Origin: Escherichia phage JY01
Direction: 5' to 3' (one strand)
Length of the DNA stretch: 64,000 bases
Sequence record: OR995200.1
Under the pieces are notes generated by a model. The model ran no database searches and was not told the DNA's origin. It saw only the letters and a list, made by a program, of their open reading frames with translations. Within the stretch, counting starts at the first letter, position 1; each line of letters begins with the position of its first letter. Made by a program: the position numbers and the translations under genes. Shown here piece by piece: positions 12,814-56,800 of this stretch.

Positions 12814-14232
12814 TTATGGATAAGTATAGATGATACCAGTTTCTAAAGCAGTTTTATGGATGATGTATCCATTACGTGATTCTTGAACATCAACTTCTGG
12901 ATAATCTTTCATCATCTTCTGAAGCGTATAACGATGCAAGTAGTACTTACTATCTGGATCTTCAGTTTTCCAATCTTTACCTTCTTCAGTCATTTTTTGG
13001 ATTTCATCCATAACCCACCAACCGCACCAGATATAAGCTGAAGTACGATGTGGAAGAGGATGAACATAAGGCAATTCACCTTCTGGTTCCGGAGCAACTT
13101 TATCAGTTACCTGAACTTGACCTGTTGTTTTAACTGTTTTGCTATCATAGTCAGTTGCTGTAACGACAGCAGTAACTTCAATAGTTTGACTTCCAACAGA
13201 TGAGGTATCAACAGTATATACGTTAGTTGACCCTTCTACAGGAGAAGAATCTTTCTTCCATGAATAAGTAATTTGCGCTTCTTCTGGAGCATCAGTGACA
13301 TTAGCAGTAAATGTAGCCGAAGCATCTTGCTGAACGTTAATAGAAGGAGGAGTCAATGTAACCTGTGGATTCATTGTCTTTTTATTAACAGTCAGTGATA
13401 CTTCATTCGAAGTAACTTCCTTTTCATTGTAATTTTCTGCTGTTACTTGGGCTACGCATTTAATTCTTTTTACCCCACTTGTAGTTGGAGTATAGCTAAA
13501 TGTAGAGTTAGTTTCTCCACCAACTTGAGAATCATCTACATACCATTTATATGTAGCAGACGCTCCATCAGGTTGAGAAGCTAAGGTAGCAGTAAATTGA
13601 ACTGGGGTTCCAATTACTCCTGCTGGAGGACTATTAGGAGTTACTGCCAATGTAGTTGTCTGTGTCTTTTTATTAACAGTCAGTGATACTTCATTCGAAG
13701 TAACGGTTTTTTCATCATAATTTGTCGCGGTTACTTGAGCTACACACTTGATTTTTTTAACTCCGCTGGCGGCAGGAGTGTAATTAAATGTAGCAGAAGT
13801 CGCTTCGTCTACAGGAGAATCGTCAACGTACCATTGATACGTAGCAGATGCACCTGATGGCTGCGAAGCTAAGGCAGCAGTAAATTTAACAGCTGTTCCG
13901 ATTACTCCAGCAGCGGGACTATTGGGAGTTACTGCCAATGTAGTTGTCTGAGTTTTGTTTTTTACTGTGATAGTTGTAGTAGCTTCTGCTGTTTCAGCTT
14001 CAGATTCTGGAACTGTATTTGTTGCAACAACTTTAATAGTCTTTTGACCAGCAGGACCTTTTAATACATAATCAAAAGTTGCTTCAGACCCATCTTGTGG
14101 AGCATTATCTACACTCCAAGCATAAGTAATAGTTCCACCTCCAGTTTCACCACTGGGTGCAGCAGTAAACTGCTTGGTTTCATCAATAACCCCTGTCGGT
14201 GTTTTAGGAGTTATATCAACTGTAAAAGCCAT
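12814..14232 (-). CDS. hoc: Hoc, highly immunogenic outer capsid protein with an extra Ig-like domain
   Basis: 472 aa; N- and C-terminal parts match T4 Hoc as I recall it (376 aa); contains two tandem 96-aa Ig-like repeats. Confidence 0.9.
   Translation of the reverse strand: MAFTVDITPKTPTGVIDETKQFTAAPSGETGGGTITYAWSVDNAPQDGSEATFDYVLKGPAGQKTIKVVATNTVPESEAETAEATTTITVKNKTQTTTLAVTPNSPAAGVIGTAVKFTAALASQPSGASATYQWYVDDSPVDEATSATFNYTPAASGVKKIKCVAQVTATNYDEKTVTSNEVSLTVNKKTQTTTLAVTPNSPPAGVIGTPVQFTATLASQPDGASATYKWYVDDSQVGGETNSTFSYTPTTSGVKRIKCVAQVTAENYNEKEVTSNEVSLTVNKKTMNPQVTLTPPSINVQQDASATFTANVTDAPEEAQITYSWKKDSSPVEGSTNVYTVDTSSVGSQTIEVTAVVTATDYDSKTVKTTGQVQVTDKVAPEPEGELPYVHPLPHRTSAYIWCGWWVMDEIQKMTEEGKDWKTEDPDSKYYLHRYTLQKMMKDYPEVDVQESRNGYIIHKTALETGIIYTYP
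13381..13668 (-). repeat. Hoc Ig-like domain repeat unit 2 (residues ~189-284)
   Basis: second copy; shares the string gtctttttattaacagtcagtgatacttcattcgaagtaac with unit 1. Confidence 0.8.
13669..13956 (-). repeat. Hoc Ig-like domain repeat unit 1 (residues ~93-188)
   Basis: 288-bp unit tandemly repeated; protein KTQTTTLAVTPNSPAAGVIGT...SLTVNK. Confidence 0.8.
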
Positions 14233-19622: not shown

Positions 19623-20791
19623 GTATGTTACAACGTCCTGGATATCCAAATCTCAGCGTTAAATTATTTGAGAGTTATGACGCTTGGAGTAATAATAGAT
19701 TTGTTGAATTAGCTGCTACTATTACCACATTAACTATGCGTGACTCTCTTTATGGTCGAAATGAAGGAATGCTGCAGTTTTATGATTCTAAAAACATCCA
19801 TACAAAAATGGATGGAAATGAAATAATTCAGATTTCTGTAGCTAATGCAAACGATATTAATAATGTTAAAACACGAATTTATGGATGCAAGCATTTTTCC
19901 GTGTCAGTAGATTCAAAAGGCGATAACATCATTGCTATTGAATTGGGAACTATTCATTCTATAGAAAATCTTAAATTTGGTAGACCATTTTTCCCTGATG
20001 CCGGTGAATCTATAAAGGAAATGCTTGGCGTAATTTATCAAGATCGTACATTATTAACTCCAGCGATAAATGCTATTAATGCTTATGTTCCTGATATTCC
20101 ATGGACTAGCACATTTGAAAACTATTTGTCATATGTAAGAGAAGTTGCTCTAGCGGTAGGAAGCGATAAGTTCGTATTTGTATGGCAAGACATCATGGGA
20201 GTTAACATGATGGACTATGATATGATGATAAATCAAGAACCATATCCAATGATTGTAGGTGAGCCAACTTTAATAGGTCAATTCGTCCAAGAATTGAAAT
20301 ATCCATTAGCATATGATTTTGTTTGGTTGACTAAATCAAACCCGCATAAACGCGATCCAATGAAAAATGCTACTATCTATGCTCATTCATTTTTAGATTC
20401 TTCATTACCAATGATTACTACAGGAAAGGGTGAAAACTCTATTGTAGTGTCAAGGTCAGGTGCTTATTCTGAAATGACTTATAGAAATGGATATGAAGAA
20501 GCTATTCGTCTTCAGACTATGGCGCAGTATGATGGTTACGCTAAATGTTCTACTGTCGGTAATTTTAACTTGACTCCCGGCGTTAAAATTATTTTTAATG
20601 ATAGTAAAAACCAATTTAAAACAGAATTTTACGTTGATGAAGTTATTCACGAATTATCAAATAATAATTCCGTAACTCATCTTTATATGTTCACTAATGC
20701 AACGAAACTGGAAACAATCGACCCAGTTAAGGTTAAAAATGAATTTAAAACTGATACTACCACTGAAGAAAGTAGTTCTTCCGATAAGTAA
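19619..20791 (+). CDS. 27: baseplate hub subunit gp27
   Basis: 390 aa, T4 gp27 length and position. Confidence 0.92.
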
Positions 20792-25109: not shown

Positions 25110-25113
25110 CAAT

Positions 25114-25131
25114 GGGGACCGAAAGGTCCCC
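25114..25131. terminator. bidirectional terminator between convergent gene 54 and the alt.-3-like ORF
   Basis: GGGGACC-GAAA-GGTCCCC followed by ATATTTTTATTT. Confidence 0.65.
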
Positions 25132-25137
25132 ATATTT

Positions 25138-25428
25138 TTATTTACGGAATGAAATAAAAGCAGCAACTGAAGCAACAGAGGTTTCTTCAATATAAACCTC
25201 AATTTTTACCGGAGCTTCTGACTCAAATTTACCTGTTACTACACCCTGAAAAATACTTTCAGTCTGTTCTGGCTTTGAAAAATTTTCAGAAGGAAAAATT
25301 CCGAACTTTTTATCTGTTCCAAAAATTTTGATAAATTCATCATAAACTGCTTCATTGAAAGCGTTATCAGCGGGAATAACGCCTTCAACGACGAGTTCTT
25401 GACCTAAAAAGCGCAAAGAAGATTTCAT
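25138..25428 (-). CDS. hypothetical protein (alt.-3-like)
   Basis: 96-aa ORF with GAGGA SD, preceded by an early-type promoter. Confidence 0.6.
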   Translation of the reverse strand: MKSSLRFLGQELVVEGVIPADNAFNEAVYDEFIKIFGTDKKFGIFPSENFSKPEQTESIFQGVVTGKFESEAPVKIEVYIEETSVASVAAFISFRK

Positions 25429-25432
25429 TTTG

Positions 25433-25486
25433 TGTTCCTCATGTTATGTCAGTAAGACTACTATAACACAACATGAGGGACTTGTA
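25433..25486 (-). repeat. 54-bp promoter-leader cassette, copy 1
   Basis: tcctcatgttatgtcagtaaGactactataacacaacaTgagGgacttgtaaac; 51/54 identical to copy 2. Confidence 0.8.
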
Positions 25487-25489
25487 AAC
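25460..25489 (-). promoter_or_regulatory. early (sigma70-type) promoter for the alt.-3-like ORF
   Basis: minus strand: GTTTAC - 18 nt - TATAGT; part of the 54-bp repeat. Confidence 0.55.
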
Positions 25490-27546
25490 TACATTTTGAA
25501 CTTTTTAGACATTCCGTTGATGTTAACCAAAGAAGCTAAGATTTGAGAAACTTCGTTTTCCTCTTCTTTTGATTCTTCTACAAGGAATTGATTAAATCCA
25601 GCCATTGGACGAACTTCACCAGTTTCCATTAGATGGTCGCCATCATATACTGATTCTTCTAATTGTTCAGAAGGAGGAACGATTGTACCTTCGATTAGAT
25701 ACTTGTTATAAGCAGTTTCTTTCATAAAGTAAGTACTTACTTTATTAATCTTCAGTAAAATTCCACGTGGTAGAATAACTTCAGCTTCTGATGGAAATCC
25801 TGACAAATGACCTGGAACGATAACTTTAACTCGTTCAGCTCCTTTAATTACCATACCCACGCTAGTTTCAGCATCTTCATTAGCATATGTAGAATGACTA
25901 CCCATATGCATCAAATCTTCTGCATCAACGGAACCTTCTCCTTCACCAGAAAATACTGCTCCGGAATTATCTAAGGCCATATAATTTTTACCATACTCAC
26001 CAAAGATATTTGGTTTAAGTGATGTCGATACGAAGTTCTTGAAATAGAACATTTTATTTTCAATGTTATGACGCAAAGTTTTAAAAGTAACTTCTTGTCC
26101 ACGGTAAAGTGTAGTTCCTGGAGGAAGAACTGAACCTTTAGCAAACGCAGAATCTAACGTCTCAATATGTTTAATAGCTCGTTCCATATATTCTTCACGG
26201 GTAGAATCTGGTTTACCTAAAAGGAATGAGTTCATTTCAACATATGAATCTGCACAATAATCTTCAATTACATCAGATTCAGCCTGAGTCAATCCTTTTG
26301 GAGTTACTTCAGTGCTTGCATATTCATACGCCTGAGCAGCGGATTCATCAATTAATTTATAAATGCCATTCATGACAAATTGAATAATAGCTGTCTTTTC
26401 ATCTGGCGTAGCTTTAGAACCTTTAACTAAATCATTGACAATTTTCTTAATAACATCAAAGCTATTAGAAATATTAATGTCAGCAAGATCGCTTAAAATT
26501 TTATCAGTTTTATAATCAAAAAATTCTTTATTCTTTAAATATTCTTGAGAACTTTGATATGTTATATCGCTCTGCAACTTGATAGATGGATCACGTAAAC
26601 GTGCATGGGCTAATGCAATATGATTTCGGAAGCTTTCTAGTTCATAATCACTAGATTTAAAACGAGAAGCACTCCTCATACCACCGATAGCTCCTTTGCT
26701 GAAGTTTGAACCAACCTGAATAACGCCAGAGTTCATTGGTCCTTCTGCTTTATATACCGGAACTTTAGATTCAAACTCTTGATATTTCTTAGCAGCAAAG
26801 CTATCACCCTGAAGTGAAGCATCAACAGTAGAATATTGAGCTTGTGCTGCTAATCGACGACTAATTTTAGTTTTCTGAATAACAGCTTGATCCGTACGCT
26901 TATCATTTTCTAAAGCAATAGAAGCAGCAACTGCGACAGCTTTAGGAACAGCATTACCTGTTTTAACGTCTACATAAACATCACCAACCTTTGATTCAAC
27001 TTTTGTGAATAACTCAGTTGAAATAGGAGGTACACCTGGAATGTCTTCTAAATTGGCATTTTTACGGTAAACCATAATATATGCATATTTCTTATCATAG
27101 TCCCAGATTTCCTTTAAAAGAACATATCGACCTGCTCCTTTAGTACGTACTAAACGGTCAGCAATAACTTGCATTTGACGAGCAGCGCCGTTTGTTTTAC
27201 TTTTTAGTACGCGGAATAGGCATGCATCAATTTTATACTGTTTCATTGTTTGAAGAGCAGTATCAAAAACCGCATTAATGACGCCAATTGGATTTCCACC
27301 CAAGTTTTTAAGCTTAACTAACGATAATTTCTCGTTGACGCCTATCATTACGATATGCATCATTTTGTCGCCTGGCTTAACGTTTTTATTCGTATCACCG
27401 CCAGAGGTGTATGTACAAAATCTAAATCCAGGAAGCACGCTTTCTTCACCGGCTTGAATAGCAAAAATTTGTGGTATTTTATGCTTAGGATTTAAGTTAA
27501 CAACCGGCGCCGAAGCGCCGTCAAATAATTCTGTAATAAGTTCCAT
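25489..27546 (-). CDS. Alt-family ADP-ribosyltransferase paralogue (685 aa)
   Basis: N-terminal MELITELFD targeting sequence; C-terminal R / STS / E-x-E triad (YRGQ, FVSTSL, EAEVILPRG); paralogue of the adjacent gene. Confidence 0.8.
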   Translation of the reverse strand: MELITELFDGASAPVVNLNPKHKIPQIFAIQAGEESVLPGFRFCTYTSGGDTNKNVKPGDKMMHIVMIGVNEKLSLVKLKNLGGNPIGVINAVFDTALQTMKQYKIDACLFRVLKSKTNGAARQMQVIADRLVRTKGAGRYVLLKEIWDYDKKYAYIMVYRKNANLEDIPGVPPISTELFTKVESKVGDVYVDVKTGNAVPKAVAVAASIALENDKRTDQAVIQKTKISRRLAAQAQYSTVDASLQGDSFAAKKYQEFESKVPVYKAEGPMNSGVIQVGSNFSKGAIGGMRSASRFKSSDYELESFRNHIALAHARLRDPSIKLQSDITYQSSQEYLKNKEFFDYKTDKILSDLADINISNSFDVIKKIVNDLVKGSKATPDEKTAIIQFVMNGIYKLIDESAAQAYEYASTEVTPKGLTQAESDVIEDYCADSYVEMNSFLLGKPDSTREEYMERAIKHIETLDSAFAKGSVLPPGTTLYRGQEVTFKTLRHNIENKMFYFKNFVSTSLKPNIFGEYGKNYMALDNSGAVFSGEGEGSVDAEDLMHMGSHSTYANEDAETSVGMVIKGAERVKVIVPGHLSGFPSEAEVILPRGILLKINKVSTYFMKETAYNKYLIEGTIVPPSEQLEESVYDGDHLMETGEVRPMAGFNQFLVEESKEEENEVSQILASLVNINGMSKKFKM

Positions 27547-27549
27547 GAT

Positions 27550-29643
27550 TTATCCTTGAACGAACTTGTAAGGCATGTTTGTAATATCTATGCAAGACGC
27601 AATAATTCCAAGAGATGATTCTACTTTCTGTTTAACGTTTGATGAAACAAATGATGCAAAGTCAACTCTGTCTTCTATTTCAATATCACCTGTCATTGCA
27701 ACTACTTCACCGGTTTCCATTAAATGGTCTCCGTCATAGATTACCGATTCGGTGAGCTCTTCCGTGGTCATAACTTCAGCTTGAATGAGTTTTGTATTAT
27801 TAAATGTTGTTCCGTCATTATTAGAAGCATCAGTTATTTTATTAACTTTGACCATCAATCCACGCGGTAGAATAACTTCAGCTTCTGTTGCTATTCCGAG
27901 ACTTCCTGGATATACAACATTAACTTTATGAGCTCCATCAATTGCCCATCCTATTTGAACTTTAACGTATTCAGGATTTTCTTTATACGCTCTTATTTCG
28001 TTTGGATTAATAGTTATTCCTTCTTCATTTTTATCAACTGTTAATTCATTGCGAGCTTCTGGTTCTAAAAGACCAATACCAGCATGTGTGATTCCAAAAC
28101 GTCCAAAAATGATAGGAGTTAAAGAAGTAGATACAAAATTTCTGAAATAGAACACTTTATTTTTAACTAACGCTTCATATATAGGAGCAGTCATACTTTG
28201 AGCACGATAAACTGTAATGCCTTCTGGTATACGGTCACCATTTTCAAAAGCTGAATCTAAGTTATTTATAGCAGATTCAATTTCTTTTTCACTCATTACA
28301 TCATATCGTTCTGGATTGTAACGACCTAAAAGAAGATTATTGATGTCAGTATATCCTGAACCGCAATATTCTCTAATGCCACGCTTTTGTGATGGAGTAT
28401 ATTTAGAACCATCGCGGGCAATAGTAATATCAATCATTGGACCAGCACCAATTCCAGAAAAACTGTAAATCATTCGTTTGAGGAATTTAGTTTTTGCTGC
28501 GTTCCAGGAATTTTTAGTTATTTCTTCCCAGACTTCATCTGGTTGTCCTTTACGATTTTTATTATGATTAGCAAGCCATTTATCTTTATAATCTTCAAAG
28601 AATTGATTTACAGCTGCTGCGTATTTCTCTAAACATTTTATTGAAGTAGTTGGTTCATTTTTAATTGCATTAAAAATTACTTCTTTAATTTTTTCTGAAA
28701 CTTCACCGACTTGACTCATTGGAAAGAATTTATAATCATAGTGAAGTTCATCTGCCGTTCCTTCAGCAATAATTTTTGCTGCCTTTGTTTTAGAAGCTAA
28801 TGAATTAATTCCAATTTTCATTTCTTCTGCTTCGGGAATTAAAGGTGCAGTAGCTGGTTTATTAAAATTAGCTGCTGTAGATTCATACTTCTGGAATAAT
28901 TCACTTTCAAATCTAGAAGATTCCAATGACTGACTTTGTGCAATTGCTCTACGGGAAATTTTAACTTTAACGATTACGGCTTGGTCAGAACGTTTATCAT
29001 TTTCTTGTGCAATAGATGCAGCAATTGCCTCATTTTTGGTTACTTGAGCTCCAGTATCTTTATTGATATAAACATCACCGACCTTCGATTCAACTTTAGT
29101 AAAGAGTTCAGTGCTAATTTCTGGAACTCCTGGAATGTCTTCTAATGATACATTTTTGCGATGTATAAGAATATATGCATACTTTTTATCGTAATCCCAG
29201 AGTTCCTTAAGAAGGACGTATCTGCCACCTGAACGACTGCGGATGAGTCTATCAGCAATAAGTTGAATTTGTCGAGCTTGACCGGCGGTTTTAGACTTAA
29301 GAATACGAAGCATGCAGGCATCAATTTTATATTGACGCATTGTTTGCATTGCAACAGTAAAAACTGAATTGATATAATTAATCGGGCTTGGACCAAGACC
29401 TTTTAATTTAGCAATTGAACCTTTAGCAGTTAATGTAAAAGGAACAATGTGCATCATTTTATCGCCCATCTTTAAATCACGATTAGTATCACCTTCAGAT
29501 GTATAGGTACATAAACGAAAGCCTGGTTGTTCAATTGCATCATCAACATGAACTGAAAAAATTTGTGGTATTTTCTTCTTTGGATTTAAGTTTGTAATCG
29601 GAAGAGTAGTATCTTCGTCAAATAATTCTGTAATAAGTTCCAT
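27550..29643 (-). CDS. alt: Alt ADP-ribosyltransferase (capsid-packaged, injected)
   Basis: 697 aa; MELITELFD N-terminus; YRAQ, FVSTSL, EAEVILPRG motifs; late promoter TATAAATA (minus) upstream; adjacent to DNA ligase as in T4. Confidence 0.85.
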   Translation of the reverse strand: MELITELFDEDTTLPITNLNPKKKIPQIFSVHVDDAIEQPGFRLCTYTSEGDTNRDLKMGDKMMHIVPFTLTAKGSIAKLKGLGPSPINYINSVFTVAMQTMRQYKIDACMLRILKSKTAGQARQIQLIADRLIRSRSGGRYVLLKELWDYDKKYAYILIHRKNVSLEDIPGVPEISTELFTKVESKVGDVYINKDTGAQVTKNEAIAASIAQENDKRSDQAVIVKVKISRRAIAQSQSLESSRFESELFQKYESTAANFNKPATAPLIPEAEEMKIGINSLASKTKAAKIIAEGTADELHYDYKFFPMSQVGEVSEKIKEVIFNAIKNEPTTSIKCLEKYAAAVNQFFEDYKDKWLANHNKNRKGQPDEVWEEITKNSWNAAKTKFLKRMIYSFSGIGAGPMIDITIARDGSKYTPSQKRGIREYCGSGYTDINNLLLGRYNPERYDVMSEKEIESAINNLDSAFENGDRIPEGITVYRAQSMTAPIYEALVKNKVFYFRNFVSTSLTPIIFGRFGITHAGIGLLEPEARNELTVDKNEEGITINPNEIRAYKENPEYVKVQIGWAIDGAHKVNVVYPGSLGIATEAEVILPRGLMVKVNKITDASNNDGTTFNNTKLIQAEVMTTEELTESVIYDGDHLMETGEVVAMTGDIEIEDRVDFASFVSSNVKQKVESSLGIIASCIDITNMPYKFVQG

Positions 29644-34418: not shown

Positions 34419-34448
34419 TACTATCACAAAGGAACCATACTGTAAACA
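34419..34448 (-). promoter_or_regulatory. early promoter candidate
   Basis: minus strand: GTTTAC - 18 nt - TAGTAT, upstream of the 110-aa ORF. Confidence 0.4.
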
Positions 34449-40401: not shown

Positions 40402-40751
40402 TTAGAAAGGTCCTGGATGTCTTCTGCGAACTTATTGAAGGAGTTGTTGATTTGTTTTTCAACCAATCCTGGCTTACGAGCCACCACATCCGCCTTCTTT
40501 GCGTCTTTGCGCAGCTTTTCATTTTCACGCTCAATAGCAGCAATTGCCTCACGATTTTTATTATTCATTGCATCAATATAATTATATTGATTTTTTAAAT
40601 CATTTAATGCTAAAGCGTTTTCATTGGCCGTTTTTGTAATTTCAGTAACTGATGTTTCTAATCTTTCTACCTTATTTTTTAAAATAATAGATGTTCCGCC
40701 AAATGCTATTACAAGTAATAGCAATCCAGCTGTAAAATTACTTACATGCAT
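40398..40751 (-). CDS. inner-membrane spanin (PseT.3-type i-spanin)
   Basis: 117 aa; N-terminal transmembrane segment (GLLLLVIAFGGTSIIL) then coiled coil; paired with the lipoprotein gene. Confidence 0.75.
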   Translation of the reverse strand: MHVSNFTAGLLLLVIAFGGTSIILKNKVERLETSVTEITKTANENALALNDLKNQYNYIDAMNNKNREAIAAIERENEKLRKDAKKADVVARKPGLVEKQINNSFNKFAEDIQDLSK

Positions 40752-41248
40752 AAAGTTTTAATAACCTCTATAATATCGTCTTGAGAAAGACCATTAATTA
40801 AAATATGATGTTCAGCTGGAGATTTAGAAATTTTAAAGCATGCCTCAACATCTTCTGCCATATCCGATGCACTACGATTTGGATTACTAATTCCAAGACG
40901 ATGTTTTCCCGTCAAAGGATTAACGATGATATAGCATTTGCAGCTATTGATATGAACATTAGGCTGAGTCTGATTAATGAATACTTCGCACTCATACTTA
41001 GCGAGTTGATTTTCTAAAAAGACTTTCATCTCCTCAACCGCATCAGGAAGCATATCACGGGCTTGCTCAAGACGACGATTTCGATATTCTTTAATGGTCG
41101 TTTTCCGTTTGACTTGCTTAGCTAAATCTTTCTTAAGATCGGTGATATATCCAACTCGACGATTTCCTTTAAATACAGAAATCCCATCCGTAGTATCACC
41201 GTATGCTTCAACAACCATTTCAGTAGTAATAAGCTGCAAATCCATCAT
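40742..41248 (-). CDS. alc: Alc, inhibitor of host transcription on cytosine-containing DNA
   Basis: 168-aa ORF (Alc is 167 aa in T4 as I recall, so the second Met may be the start); early promoter upstream. Confidence 0.85.
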   Translation of the reverse strand: MMDLQLITTEMVVEAYGDTTDGISVFKGNRRVGYITDLKKDLAKQVKRKTTIKEYRNRRLEQARDMLPDAVEEMKVFLENQLAKYECEVFINQTQPNVHINSCKCYIIVNPLTGKHRLGISNPNRSASDMAEDVEACFKISKSPAEHHILINGLSQDDIIEVIKTLCM

Positions 41249-41252
41249 AAAG

Positions 41253-41306
41253 TCCTCATGTTATGTCAGTAAAACTACTATAACACAACACGAGAGACTT
41301 GTAAAC
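41253..41306 (-). repeat. 54-bp promoter-leader cassette, copy 2
   Basis: tcctcatgttatgtcagtaaAactactataacacaacaCgagAgacttgtaaac upstream of alc. Confidence 0.8.
41277..41306 (-). promoter_or_regulatory. early (sigma70-type) promoter for alc
   Basis: minus strand: GTTTAC - 18 nt - TATAGT; second copy of the 54-bp repeat. Confidence 0.55.
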
Positions 41307-41309
41307 AGC

Positions 41310-42897
<1,588 letters not shown>

Positions 42898-49792: not shown

Positions 49793-49822
49793 ATAGTATC
49801 ACACTACTACCCTGCTGTAAAC
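49793..49822 (-). promoter_or_regulatory. early promoter candidate with bulged inverted repeat
   Basis: minus strand: GTTTAC - 18 nt - TACTAT; inverted repeat AGGGTA...TACCCT at 49787-49813. Confidence 0.45.
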
Positions 49823-53818: not shown

Positions 53819-53848
53819 ATTATATACCATCCAAATCTTAAAGTAAAC
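53819..53848 (-). promoter_or_regulatory. early sigma70-type promoter for rnh
   Basis: minus strand: GTTTAC - 18 nt - TATAAT (TATATAAT), ~25 bp upstream of the rnh ATG. Confidence 0.6.
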
Positions 53849-53893: not shown

Positions 53894-56800
53894 ATGGCCG
53901 AGATTAAAAGAAAGTTCAGAGCAGAAGACGGTCTGGACGCAGGTGGTGATAAAATAATCAACGTAGCTTTAGCTGATCGTACCGTAGGAACTGACGGTGT
54001 AAACGTTGATTACTTAATTCAAGAAAACACAGTTCAACAATATGATCCAACTCGTGGATATTTAAAAGATTTTGTAATCATTTATGATAACCGCTTTTGG
54101 GCTGCTATAAATGATATTCCAAAACCAGCAGGAGCTTTTAATAGCGTACGATGGAGAGCGTTACGCACTGATGCAAACTGGACAACTGTTTCGTCAGGAC
54201 CTTATCAATTAAAATCAGGCGAATCGATTTCAGTTAACACCGCAGCGGGTAATGACATTACATTTACTTTGCCATCTTCTCCAATTGATGGTGATACTAT
54301 CGTTCTCCAAGATATTGGAGGAAAACCTGGAGTTAACCAGGTTTTAATTACAGCTCCGGTACAAAGCATTGTAAACTTTAGAGGTCAACAAGTACGCTCA
54401 GTACTAATGACTCATCCAAAATCACAGATAGTTTTAATTTTTAGTAATCGTCTGTGGCAAATGTATGTTGCTGATTATAGCAGAGAAGCGGCAGTTGTAA
54501 CACCGGCAAGTCTTTATCAAGCGCAATCAAACGATTTTATCGTGCGTAGATTTACTTCTGCTTCAGCAATTAATATTAAACTTCCAAGATTTGCTAATCA
54601 TGGCGATATTATTAATTTCGTTGATTTGGATAAATTAAATCCACTTTATCACACAATTGTTACCACATACGACGAAACGACTTCAGTACAAGAAGTTGGA
54701 ACTCATTCCATTGAAGGTCGTACATCTATTGATGGTTTCTTGATGTTTGATGATAATGAGAAATTGTGGAGATTGTTTGACGGGGATAGTAAAGCACGTT
54801 TACGCATTATAACGACTAATTCTAATATTCGTCCAAATGAAGAAGTCATGGTATTTGGCGCAAATAATGGAACAACCCAAACAATTGAACTTCAGCTTCC
54901 AACTGATATTTCTATCGGTGATACTGTTAAGATTTCCATGAATTATATGAGAAAAGGACAAACAGTTAAAATCAAAGCTGCCGGTGAAGATAAAATTGCT
55001 TCTTCAGTTCAATTGCTGCAATTTCCAAAACGTTCAGAATACCCACCTGAAACTAAATGGGTGACTGTTCAAGAATTAGTTTTTAATGGCGAAACCAATT
55101 ATGTTCCAGTTTTACAGCTTGCTTATATCGAAGATTCCGATGGAAAATATTGGGTTGTACAGCAAAACGTTCCAACTGTAGAAAGAGTAGACTCTTTAAA
55201 TAATTCTACTAGAGCAAGATTAGGCGTAATTGCTTTAGCTACACAGGCTCAAGCTAATGCTGATCTAGAAAATTCTCCACAAAAAGAATTGGCAATTACT
55301 CCAGAAACGTTAGCTAATCGTACTGCTACAGAAACTCGTAGAGGTATTGCAAGAATAGCAACAACTGCGCAAGTAAACCAGGATACCACATTCTCTTTTG
55401 CTGATGATATTATCATCACTCCTAAAAAGCTGAATGAAAGAACAGCTACTGAAACTCGCAGAGGTGTTGCTGAAATTGCTACGCAGCAAGAAACTAATGC
55501 AGGAACCGATGATACTACAATCATCACTCCTAAAAAGCTTCAAGCCCGCCAGGGTTCTGAGTCATTATCTGGTATTGTAACTTTTGTATCTACTGCAGGT
55601 GCTACTCCAGCTTCTAGCCGTGAATTAAATGGTACGAATGTTTATAATAAAAACACTAATAATTTAGTTGTTTCGCCAAAAGCTTTGGACCAGTATAAAG
55701 CTACGCCTACTCAACAGGGTGCAGTAATTTTAGCAGTTGAAAGTGAAGTAATTGCTGGTCAAAGTCAAGAAGGATGGGCAAATGCTGTTGTAACGCCAGA
55801 AACGTTACACAAAAAGACATCAACTGATGGAAGAATTGGATTAATTGAAATTGCTACGCAAAGTGAAGTTAATACAGGAACTGATTATACTCGTGCAGTC
55901 ACTCCTAAAACTTTAAATGACCGTAGAGCAACTGAAAGTTTAAGTGGTATAGCTGAAATTGCTACACAAGTTGAATTCGACGCAGGCGTCGACGATACTC
56001 GTATCTCTACACCATTAAAAATTAAAACTAGATTTAATAGTACTGATCGTACTTCTGTTGTTGCTCTATCTGGATTAGTTGAATCAGGAACTCTCTGGGA
56101 CCATTATACCCTTAATATTCTTGAAGCAAATGAGACACAACGTGGTACACTTCGTGTAGCTACACAAGTTGAAGCTGCTGCAGGAACATTAGATAATGTT
56201 TTAATAACTCCTAAAAAGCTTTTAGGTACTAAATCTACTGAAGCGCAAGAAGGTGTTATTAAAGTTGCAACACAAACCGAAACTGTTGCTGGAACATCGG
56301 CAAATACTGCTGTATCTCCAAAAAATTTAAAATGGATTGTGCAGAGTGAACCTACTTGGGCAGCTACTACTGCAGTAAGAGGCTTTGTTAAAACTTCATC
56401 TGGTTCAATTACATTCGTTGGTAATGATACAGCCGGTTCTACTCAGGACTTAGAGCTATACGAGAAAAATAGCTATGCAGTATCACCATACGAATTAAAC
56501 CGTGTATTAGCAAATTATTTGCCATTAAAAGCAAAAGCTGCAGATAGTAATTTATTGGATGGTCTAGATTCATCTCAGTTCATTCGTAGGGATATTGCGC
56601 AGACGGTTAATGGTTCACTAACCTTAACTCAACAAACGAATCTGAGTGCCCCTCTTGTATCATCTAGTACTGCTACGTTCGGTGGATCAGTTTCAGCAAA
56701 TAGTACATTAACTATTTCTAATACTGGAACAGCAACTCGATTGATTTTTGAGAAAGGACCTCAAACTGGAACAAACCCAGCCCAAACGATGACTGTTAGA

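Follow-up and report, generated by a model that had tools for sequence, protein, structure and literature searches.

Near-identical early-promoter cassettes upstream of alc and alt.-3 in Tequatrovirus, with a predicted hairpin that covers the Shine-Dalgarno sequence

Two copies of one cassette

The window analysed here is a 64,000-nucleotide (nt) stretch of the genome of Escherichia phage JY01 (OR995200.1), a member of Tequatrovirus (T4 group). On its minus strand, the same 54-nt cassette, which combines an early-type promoter, a leader and a Shine-Dalgarno (SD) sequence, is found twice: upstream of alt.-3 (copy A, GTTTACAAGTCCCTCATGTTGTGTTATAGTAGTCTTACTGACATAACATGAGGA, 25436-25489) and upstream of alc (copy B, 41253-41306). 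Each copy constitutes the whole intergenic region at its locus, and both loci match approximately 500 phage records at 90-99.8% identity. The features of the two loci, including the predicted RNA hairpin described below, are as follows.

25436..25489, minus strand: copy A, the 54-nt cassette, spanning the intergenic gap from the proximal alt paralog to alt.-3 and sharing its first base with the end of the alt TAG stop codon
25484..25489, minus strand: copy A, -35 element GTTTAC of the T4 early type (TTTACA at 25483-25488)
25460..25465, minus strand: copy A, -10 element TATAGT with TGn (TG at 25467-25468), at the hairpin tip
25465..25478, minus strand: copy A, hairpin 5' arm CCTCATGTTGTGTT from the RNA fold, coinciding with the promoter spacer
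25437..25450, minus strand: copy A, hairpin 3' arm GACATAACATGAGG, including most of the SD GAGGA (25436-25440)
25453, minus strand: copy A, predicted transcription start (A), 7 nt past the -10 box by the sigma-70 position rule
25138..25428, minus strand: alt.-3, the gene served by copy A, 96 amino acids (aa), DUF5498 (Pfam PF17602, E=3e-62)
25489..27546, minus strand: proximal alt paralog, upstream of copy A, a 685-aa ADP-ribosyltransferase (Pfam PF03496)
41253..41306, minus strand: copy B, the 54-nt cassette at the rnlA/alc junction, where the design is kept in seven genera
41301..41306, minus strand: copy B, -35 element GTTTAC, from the promoter scan and the sequence
41277..41282, minus strand: copy B, -10 element TATAGT with TGn, at the hairpin tip
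41282..41295, minus strand: copy B, hairpin 5' arm TCTCGTGTTGTGTT, from the RNA fold and the sequence
41254..41267, minus strand: copy B, hairpin 3' arm GACATAACATGAGG, including most of the SD GAGGA (41253-41257)
41270, minus strand: copy B, predicted transcription start (A), by the position rule
40742..41248, minus strand: alc, the gene served by copy B, a 168-aa inhibitor of host transcription (Pfam PF17527, E=7.5e-92)
41310..42470, minus strand: rnlA (gene 63), RNA ligase 1, upstream of copy B (Pfam PF09511 and PF20819)

The two copies align in register without gaps and are identical in 51 of the 54 positions, the differences from copy A to copy B being three transitions, at index 12 (C>T), 16 (A>G) and 34 (C>T) of the element. 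The shared stretch extends from the G of the -35 hexamer GTTTAC (index 1) to the last A of the SD GAGGA, and the sequences flanking copy A and copy B are unrelated to each other. Copy B starts 3 nt beyond the TAA of rnlA; downstream, 7 nt separate copy A from the ATG of alt.-3 and 4 nt separate copy B from the ATG of alc. An earlier note, made from the sequence alone, had correctly reported the minus-strand anatomy of both copies (GTTTAC, 18-nt spacer, TATAGT, GAGGA), the three differing positions and the location of copy B, and had placed copy A 3 nt off, at 25433-25486.

Both copies contain GTTTAC, an 18-nt spacer and TGT-TATAGT; a consensus scan reads both sites as TTTACA-17-TATAGT, matching the sigma-70 consensus in 10 of 12 positions, with the TG. 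The A+T content of the 40 nt upstream is 70% for copy A and 75% for copy B, compared to 63.8% for the window, both stretches being the 3' ends of coding genes. The possibility that alt.-3 is a paralog of the N-terminus of Alc, with the similarity running into the coding regions, was ruled out, BLASTP yielding no alignment.

A search of the window with up to 3 mismatches retrieves copies A and B alone (0 expected from 100 shuffles); no other ungapped match to the 54-mer, whichever the strand, exceeds 30/54, and among the six further early-type promoters of the window the best score is 29/54. For the genome-wide comparison, the complete T4 reference genome (168,903 bp) was assembled. It contains exactly two copies, at 136283-136336 (alc) and 123040-123093 (alt.-3), which match each other in 53 of 54 positions and lie 13,243 bp apart; the next best site is 32/54. 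Among the 903 pairs of T4 promoter-like sites drawn from 43 matches to GTTTAC and a -10 box, the A/B pair is the most similar one (54/60, against a median of 26/60). One could argue that such similarity merely extends the T4 early-promoter consensus, which is unusually long, or arises by chance; indeed, the A/B pair is not isolated in T4, where other promoters form sequence families (for example, 166807 with 53943, 51/60). We give this explanation practically no weight, and regard it as refuted by the contrast between 51-54 identities of 54 for the A/B copies and at most 32 elsewhere in T4 or 30 in the window, together with the zero matches in shuffled sequences. The claim of the earlier note that an entire expression cassette (promoter, leader and SD) is shared, beyond promoter consensus, is borne out by these counts; the full-genome scan for further similar sites, set beforehand as the test that could overturn it, found the two copies only.

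In a blastn survey, the cassette is placed at two locations in every listed Tequatrovirus row. The totals of 664 records and 1164 places, with 499 records at an identity of at least 90%, are consistent with a pair of places in each Tequatrovirus record and a single one in every other record. An IMG/VR search with the loose pattern TATAGTAGTNNTACTRA gave more than 120 matches, nearly all due to chance, and only T4-like contigs were left after filtering; the single metagenome scan gave only 5 loci, so that the population was sampled from GenBank phages.

A predicted hairpin that buries the SD

In the predicted fold of a read-through RNA, nearly the whole element forms a single hairpin of about 18 bp with the -10 box at its tip. 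The main stem is formed by index 12-25, the promoter spacer (CCUC[A/G]UGUUGUGUU), with index 40-53, a segment that includes the SD (GACAUAACAUGAGG); in the upper part, four pairs between 28-31 and 36-39 close a GUCU loop. The minimum free energy (MFE) is -24.0 kcal/mol for copy A (z -3.2) and -30.9 kcal/mol for copy B (z -4.6). The predicted transcription start falls between the 5' arm and the 3' arm, and an RNA beginning at this position is unstructured in the fold prediction. The predicted cost of opening the region from the SD to the AUG is 10.7-13.8 kcal/mol in the read-through RNA compared to 0.9-2.5 kcal/mol in the self-initiated RNA (both copies, window and T4). The sense RNA is predicted to be more stable (-22.0 kcal/mol) than the antisense RNA (-17.2 kcal/mol) or the DNA strands (-9.6 and -6.1 kcal/mol) because the stem uses three G.U pairs. 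Neither hairpin is flagged by the terminator scan and neither is followed by a U-tract; a search of the whole window against Rfam at gathering thresholds identified no family. The promoter, leader and SD of the earlier description stand, but its main internal feature, the SD-burying hairpin that fills almost the whole element, had been missed.

The complementarity between spacer and leader extends beyond the two copies: for 14 of the 29 predicted early promoters of T4, the complementarity of the spacer is higher with its own leader than with any of the 28 other leaders (Mann-Whitney P=5.5e-4), and the 3' arm covers the SD in about 8 of these 14.

Other early promoters show related features. 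Four of the six other early-type promoters of the window (minus strand, -35 at 49822, 37985, 34447 and 34055) lie inside strong hairpins straddling the -10 box, with z from -2.4 to -3.7, the 3' arm at 34447 covering the SD (AAGGAG); the promoters at 53848 and 50546 have no strong hairpin of this kind. The minus-strand early promoters of T4 (NC_000866) form families that share spacers and/or leaders, with 51/60, 50/60 and 49/60 identities; the members include 166807 and 53943, 20612 (dmd) and 57990 (mobD.2 region), and 27080, 70696, 163673 and 167086. Between the dmd promoter and that of the mobD.2 region, the stems show compensatory C-G to T-A changes, and the leader ACAACTATCAACTACTGATAC is common to several T4 early promoters.

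Conservation of the design at alc across genera

The region upstream of alc was compared in nine further genera, each represented by one phage. In Tequatro-, Dhaka-, Gelderland-, Karam-, Jiaoda-, Marfa- and Kanagawavirus, the 5' arm directly follows GTTTACA, the loop holds the -10 box and the SD forms the end of the 3' arm. The arms themselves differ in sequence among these seven genera (for example, UCUCCGUUUUG/CAAACGGAGA, UCUCCAUUUGGUU/AACCAAAUGGAGA, UCCUCAUCAG/CUGAUGAGGA and CCUCGUUUGUU/AACAAACGAGG), with hairpin MFE values from -17 to -31 kcal/mol; no U-tract past the hairpin was found in any of the seven, the sequence after the stem being A-rich. In the Gaprivervirus phage examined, the gene upstream of alc is a different one and there is no promoter.

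The co-variation of the two arms was assessed in two ways. In an alignment-free partner-swap test across the seven genera, the duplexes of each spacer with its own leader average -20.0 kcal/mol compared to -11.7 kcal/mol for swapped partners, and the true assignment alone does that well among all 5040 permutations. In a structural alignment of the seven alc leaders, with the loops padded with N and registered by hand, 82.3% of the cells pair compared to 38.6-50.2% with slid partners, and 10 of the 18 pairs change on both sides (4-5 when slid); the observed covariation was reached by none of 500 shuffles.

In Mosigvirus mogra (MN850579, locus positions 201-764), the annotated alc coding sequence begins 60 nt upstream of the tblastn match to Alc, so that in the annotation it runs up to the end of rnlA and includes the early promoter, probably through a mis-called start codon.

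Origin of the alt.-3 copy

Upstream of alt.-3, the Dhaka-, Gapriver-, Mosig-, Marfa-, Kanagawa- and Karamvirus representatives carry a different cassette, with a short, spacer-confined hairpin (CCAC-AAGGA-GTGG type) and a free SD. The alt.-3 leader in these six genera ends in ...CA(C/A)ATGAGGAAAACAAAATG, resembling the tail of copy A; in the Dhakavirus phage, the cassettes of alc and alt.-3 share generic promoter features only. Given that the alc-type cassette is kept at alc whereas a different cassette occupies alt.-3 in these six genera, the alc type is most likely ancestral at alc and derived at alt.-3, the sequences pointing to replacement of the alt.-3 cassette by an alc copy in the Tequatrovirus ancestor. 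The promoter capture suggested by the earlier note thus survives in the form of such a replacement.

The replacement may have involved exchange between two blocks already common to both cassettes, GTTTACA at the -35 element and ATGAGGA at the SD; these two blocks are the exact limits of the 54-nt identity. The junctions of T4 rearrangements are microhomologies of 6-10 bp (Srikant, Guegler and Laub 2022, PMC9391042, and works cited there), and the proposed replacement at alt.-3 is likewise bounded by blocks of 7-8 nt. In contrast, the events in PMC9391042 are tandem amplifications and deletions in the laboratory, whereas the event proposed here would be an ancient replacement of a patch with two junctions.

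A related sequence occurs at a third locus. In Mosigvirus ST0 (NC_041990, approximately 20004-20064, minus strand), a chimeric cassette adjoins ndd and precedes an unrelated 66-aa open reading frame (ORF); its half from the -10 box to the ATG nearly equals copy A (TATAGTAGTCCTACTGAAACATGAGGAACACAAAATG), including the A-specific AACACAAAATG, and its spacer differs. About 110 phage records give the same partial match (query 47-92, 87% identity), ST0 alone having been inspected.

Evolution of the two copies after the proposed replacement

The two copies were compared in ten same-genome or same-sample pairs. In these, both loci have one consensus (with G at index 16), and one contig carries copies identical in all 54 positions. 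The within-genome mismatches between A and B range from 0 to 3 (mean 2.0 of 54) and the between-genome mean is 1.82, with distances between alleles of the same locus of 2.24 (A-A) and 1.40 (B-B); the three A/B differences of the window are typical. The ten pairs yield no excess of within-genome similarity that would indicate ongoing homogenisation, and since the replacement the two copies would have drifted independently.

Alternatively, the near-identity might be under active maintenance, through gene conversion that still continues between the two loci or through a trans-acting factor common to both that reads the leader, which would be true co-regulation beyond the early class of both genes. 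Index 16 (A/G) and index 34 (C/T) are polymorphic at both loci, the mean A-B distance is no larger than the distances within a locus, and T4 recombines readily at short homologies, all of which would suit such maintenance. We nevertheless consider it quite improbable: the A-B mismatches within genomes are not fewer than those between genomes, and strain variation is 3.5-4.3% in the element compared to 0.7-2.4% in the flanks. Moreover, the changes at both shared sites are transitions, one in the stem at a position that tolerates wobble and one in the loop, and are likely to recur there; there is also no known candidate factor, the leader sequence lacking a GGAG RegB site. The polymorphisms shared at index 16 and 34 could stem from recurrent mutation or rare exchange.

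As collinear direct repeats, copies A and B are separated by 15.3-15.8 kb in the window and seven relatives, and by 13.2 kb in T4. Neither T4, the window nor 7 other genomes showed the deletion or inversion variants between the copies that the earlier note had proposed to look for in related genomes. Gene 30 (DNA ligase) and gene 31 lie in the interval; both are essential in T4, so that a deletion between the copies should be lethal. The suggestion that the pair provides a substrate for homologous recombination is plausible in principle for T4 and finds no support here, the copies being collinear and showing no excess likeness within genomes.

Expression class and neighbourhood of the two genes

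In a time-resolved transcriptome and proteome of T4 (Wolfram-Schauerte et al. 2022, PMC9697503), both alc and alt.-3 are early at the RNA and protein levels, whereas, among the upstream genes, alt.-1/alt.-2 are 'middle' in RNA, and rnlA is early in RNA but late in protein. These classes fit a dedicated early promoter at each cassette; the translational gate proposed below is a separate matter. The co-regulation put forward in the earlier note is compatible with the early class of both genes, which is equally true of most genes behind early promoters. A differential RNA sequencing study of T4 reports 150 phage start sites.

Upstream of copy A, two full-length alt paralogs lie in tandem on the minus strand (25489-27546 and 27550-29643; 685 and 697 aa), both ADP-ribosyltransferases by Pfam, with about 70-78% DNA identity at a spacing of 2094-2103 nt. 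T4 retains only remnants of the proximal copy (alt.-1/alt.-2, according to the note in the T4 record), and a Dhakavirus carries three copies; the array that adjoins copy A is evolutionarily plastic. Beyond alt.-3, a perfect 9-bp GC-rich hairpin (25112-25133) separates the convergent genes 54 (plus strand) and alt.-3 (minus strand). On the plus strand, the stem is followed by a T-run (ATTTTTATTT), and the minus strand is also flagged by the scan (TGTTATATTG); this hairpin is a likely terminator for one or both transcription units.

Relationship to known early cassettes and translational gates

The cassettes belong to a described class, the PeSL (promoter-early stem-loop) cassettes of T4-type phages (Arbiol et al. 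2010, PMC2839356; Comeau et al. 2014, PMC4122927), a point that escaped the earlier note, which had rightly recognised the shared cassette itself. Arbiol et al. (PMC2839356) demonstrated that the cassettes have promoter activity, that one stem-loop attenuates a reporter, and that cassettes recombine with each other, the crossovers falling between the -10 box and the SD/ATG; Comeau et al. (PMC4122927) extended PeSLs to the T4/PST pair, with TTTACW-N17-TAYWAT. At the level of sequence, every PeSL hallmark can be recognised at both sites, the -10 box TATAGT agreeing with TAYWAT in 5 of 6 positions (G at position 5). As in PeSLs, there is a sigma-70-like early promoter with an AT-rich upstream region and a stem-loop between the -35 box and the -10 box or overlapping the latter; both copies occupy the space between the upstream stop codon and the downstream SD/start, and the copies are similar enough to recombine, with inter-locus exchange, here a proposed one, and breakpoints between the promoter boxes and the SD. 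Several properties differ. The published role of the stem is that of a terminator or attenuator, whereas here a stem of about 18 bp encloses the -10 box and reaches the SD without a U-tract. PeSL shuffling has been described for neighbouring cassettes in hyperplastic regions, flanking small dispensable ORFs; in contrast, the A/B pair is 13-16 kb apart and brackets essential genes, with no rearrangement found. As regards PeSL plasticity, copy A borders the variable alt array and its cassette was apparently replaced, and the ST0 chimera occupies a third locus; no A/B rearrangement was seen.

The promoters themselves are of the T4 early (Pe) type, described as 'uber' UP/-35/TGn/-10 promoters (Hinton 2010, PMC2988021; also Liebig and Ruger 1989), with which they share the GTTTAC -35 element, the TGn-extended -10 element, A/T-rich upstream DNA and early downstream genes. 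Unlike promoter pairs that share the class consensus (about 26-36 of 60 positions), A and B also have the spacer and the whole leader in common.

The closest functional parallel would be T4 genes e, soc, 49 and I-TevI, in which, as experiments have established, the SD and/or AUG is held in a helix that only long upstream transcripts form, and the transcripts of an internal promoter escape; for gene e, the hairpin hiding the ribosome-binding site has a 100-fold effect (Uzan and Miller 2010, PMC3014915). Likewise, in the alc and alt.-3 cassettes, the SD is predicted to be paired in upstream transcripts, the promoter lies inside the structure and its own RNA would lack the 5' strand. The difference is that the known internal promoters are late (gp55, TATAAATA) and the gate delays translation until late infection, whereas here the promoter is a sigma-70 early one, so that translation would be restricted by the gate to the earliest period. 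PMC3014915 lists neither alc nor alt.-3 among its cases of ribosome-binding site sequestration, and a literature search for SD sequestration by a hairpin containing an early promoter in T4 found late-promoter cases only. On these predictions, the element would work like the e, soc, 49 and I-TevI gates but lies outside the described set. It is no new class of element: what the present analysis adds to the PeSL and T4 early-promoter cassettes is the predicted SD-burying hairpin with its own promoter inside, the retention of this design with co-varying arms at alc in seven genera, and the recognition of the alt.-3 element as most likely a transplanted alc cassette.

A proposed mechanism and its alternatives

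The interpretation that we favour, with a probability of roughly 0.6, is that A and B are paralogous early cassettes of the PeSL class, each consisting of a promoter and an SD-hiding hairpin, the alt.-3 copy being derived from the alc locus and the two then drifting independently. As DNA, the cassette would be a strong sigma-70 early promoter (GTTTAC, 18 nt, TGnTATAGT), with transcription starting about 17 nt upstream of the SD. As RNA read from the upstream gene (alt or rnlA), it would form the hairpin of about 18 bp, with the spacer as the 5' arm and the SD within the 3' arm, and the ribosome-binding site of such read-through transcripts would be buried. In self-initiated transcripts, the 5' arm would be absent and the SD free. 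Translation of alc and alt.-3 would in this manner be tied to the short immediate-early burst of their own promoters; that only self-initiated RNA is translated is suggested by the analogy with T4 e, soc, 49 and I-TevI and by the thermodynamic prediction.

Several observations weigh against this interpretation or limit it. The transcription start of both copies (A, index 37) is a prediction from the position rule. The alc cassettes of a Mosigvirus and an Acinetobacter Lazarusvirus form hairpins that leave the SD free, so that the gate is not universal, and RNAalifold found no consensus structure in the unedited MAFFT alignment of the alc leaders from the seven genera, because differing loop lengths put the helices out of register. 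Of the 6 stem changes within Tequatrovirus, 5 keep the pairing, compared to a neutral 61% (P of about 0.25, not significant), and G18A in copy A of ECP52 and 121/2022-2B breaks a stem pair; maintenance of pairing by all within-genus variants was accordingly dropped as evidence. The direction of copying relies on one phage per outgroup genus. In copy A, the stop codon of the upstream gene overlaps the -35 element, and a ribosome that terminates there could open the stem at its base and so release the SD. Finally, the authors of the PeSL studies, in whose hands one RB49 stem-loop attenuated a downstream reporter, read these structures as terminators.

This last proposal, under which the hairpin acts chiefly to attenuate or terminate transcription and so insulates the downstream gene, its overlap with the SD being incidental, strikes us as unlikely. 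It draws on the RB49 stem-loop PeSL211/210, which when placed between a strong promoter and lacZ lowers expression about as much as rrnB T1, and on the changes in temporal class at both cassettes in the T4 omics data, which are compatible with attenuation and not specific to it. Yet neither the terminator scan nor the A-rich sequence after the stem in the seven genera, with no U-tract, suggests termination, and the drop in lacZ activity was observed in a transcriptional-fusion vector, where it could reflect other effects of a strong hairpin. Termination alone also leaves unexplained why the 3' arm covers the SD in 7 of the 7 genera with long hairpins despite the differing arms. The overlap of the stop codon with the -35 element in copy A, and its position 3 nt before the -35 element in copy B, would instead suit translational coupling, whereby the SD in read-through RNA is not blocked but becomes exposed only when the ribosome finishing the upstream gene melts the stem at its base; the pairing partners of the SD are element positions 11-15, which, given established footprint sizes, may be near the reach of a terminating ribosome. 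We find this coupling doubtful: the stop is placed 2-4 nt further upstream in copy B and most other genera, which would let the footprint cover no more than the first one or two pairs and leave the 14-bp main stem closed. Very unlikely is an action of the inverted repeat as DNA, through a cruciform or protein site for recombination or promoter opening, with the RNA fold irrelevant. The PeSL authors speculated that a DNA-binding protein targets the stems, and crossovers have been mapped inside PeSLs; however, the stem relies on three G.U pairs, which favour the sense RNA over DNA in predicted stability, and the arms vary freely across genera with no conserved protein site beyond the promoter boxes. 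Attenuation and coupling remain beside the gate that we favour.

More tentatively, and with somewhat less than even odds, a large subset of T4-like early cassettes may be more than promoters with terminators and act as gates that sense the origin of a transcript, the spacer having been selected to pair with the SD of its own gene and only RNA initiated at the cassette being translated; alc would be the best-conserved case and alt.-3 one transplanted whole through replacement bounded by microhomologies.

Other repeats in the window

Two further repeat arrays were observed in the window. At 13375-13950, inside ORF 12814-14232 (minus strand), there is a 288-nt tandem direct repeat with 78% identity. 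This ORF encodes 472 aa with matches to PKD/Ig-like domains and occupies the position of T4 hoc (a coding sequence of 1,131 nt, about 376 aa), adjoining a 226-aa ORF of the size of inh; from sequence and position it looks like Hoc with one extra 96-aa Ig-like domain. At 55402-56305, there are several imperfect direct repeats with a spacing of 108 nt (families D2 and D12); from their position relative to T4, these are probably part of the proximal tail-fibre gene 34.

Implications

If the proposed gating is real, 'immediate-early' would be a translational as well as a transcriptional property of such genes, and the hairpin around the alc promoter would keep the synthesis of Alc within the first minutes of infection, regardless of later read-through from rnlA. 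The alt.-3 copy would represent a clean natural case of a complete regulatory cassette transplanted before an unrelated gene, with both junctions visible, and would support the modular shuffling of PeSLs outside hyperplastic regions. For phage engineering and promoter annotation, it follows that the spacer of many early promoters may also be one half of an RNA structure, and that edits to the spacer may alter the translation of the downstream gene.

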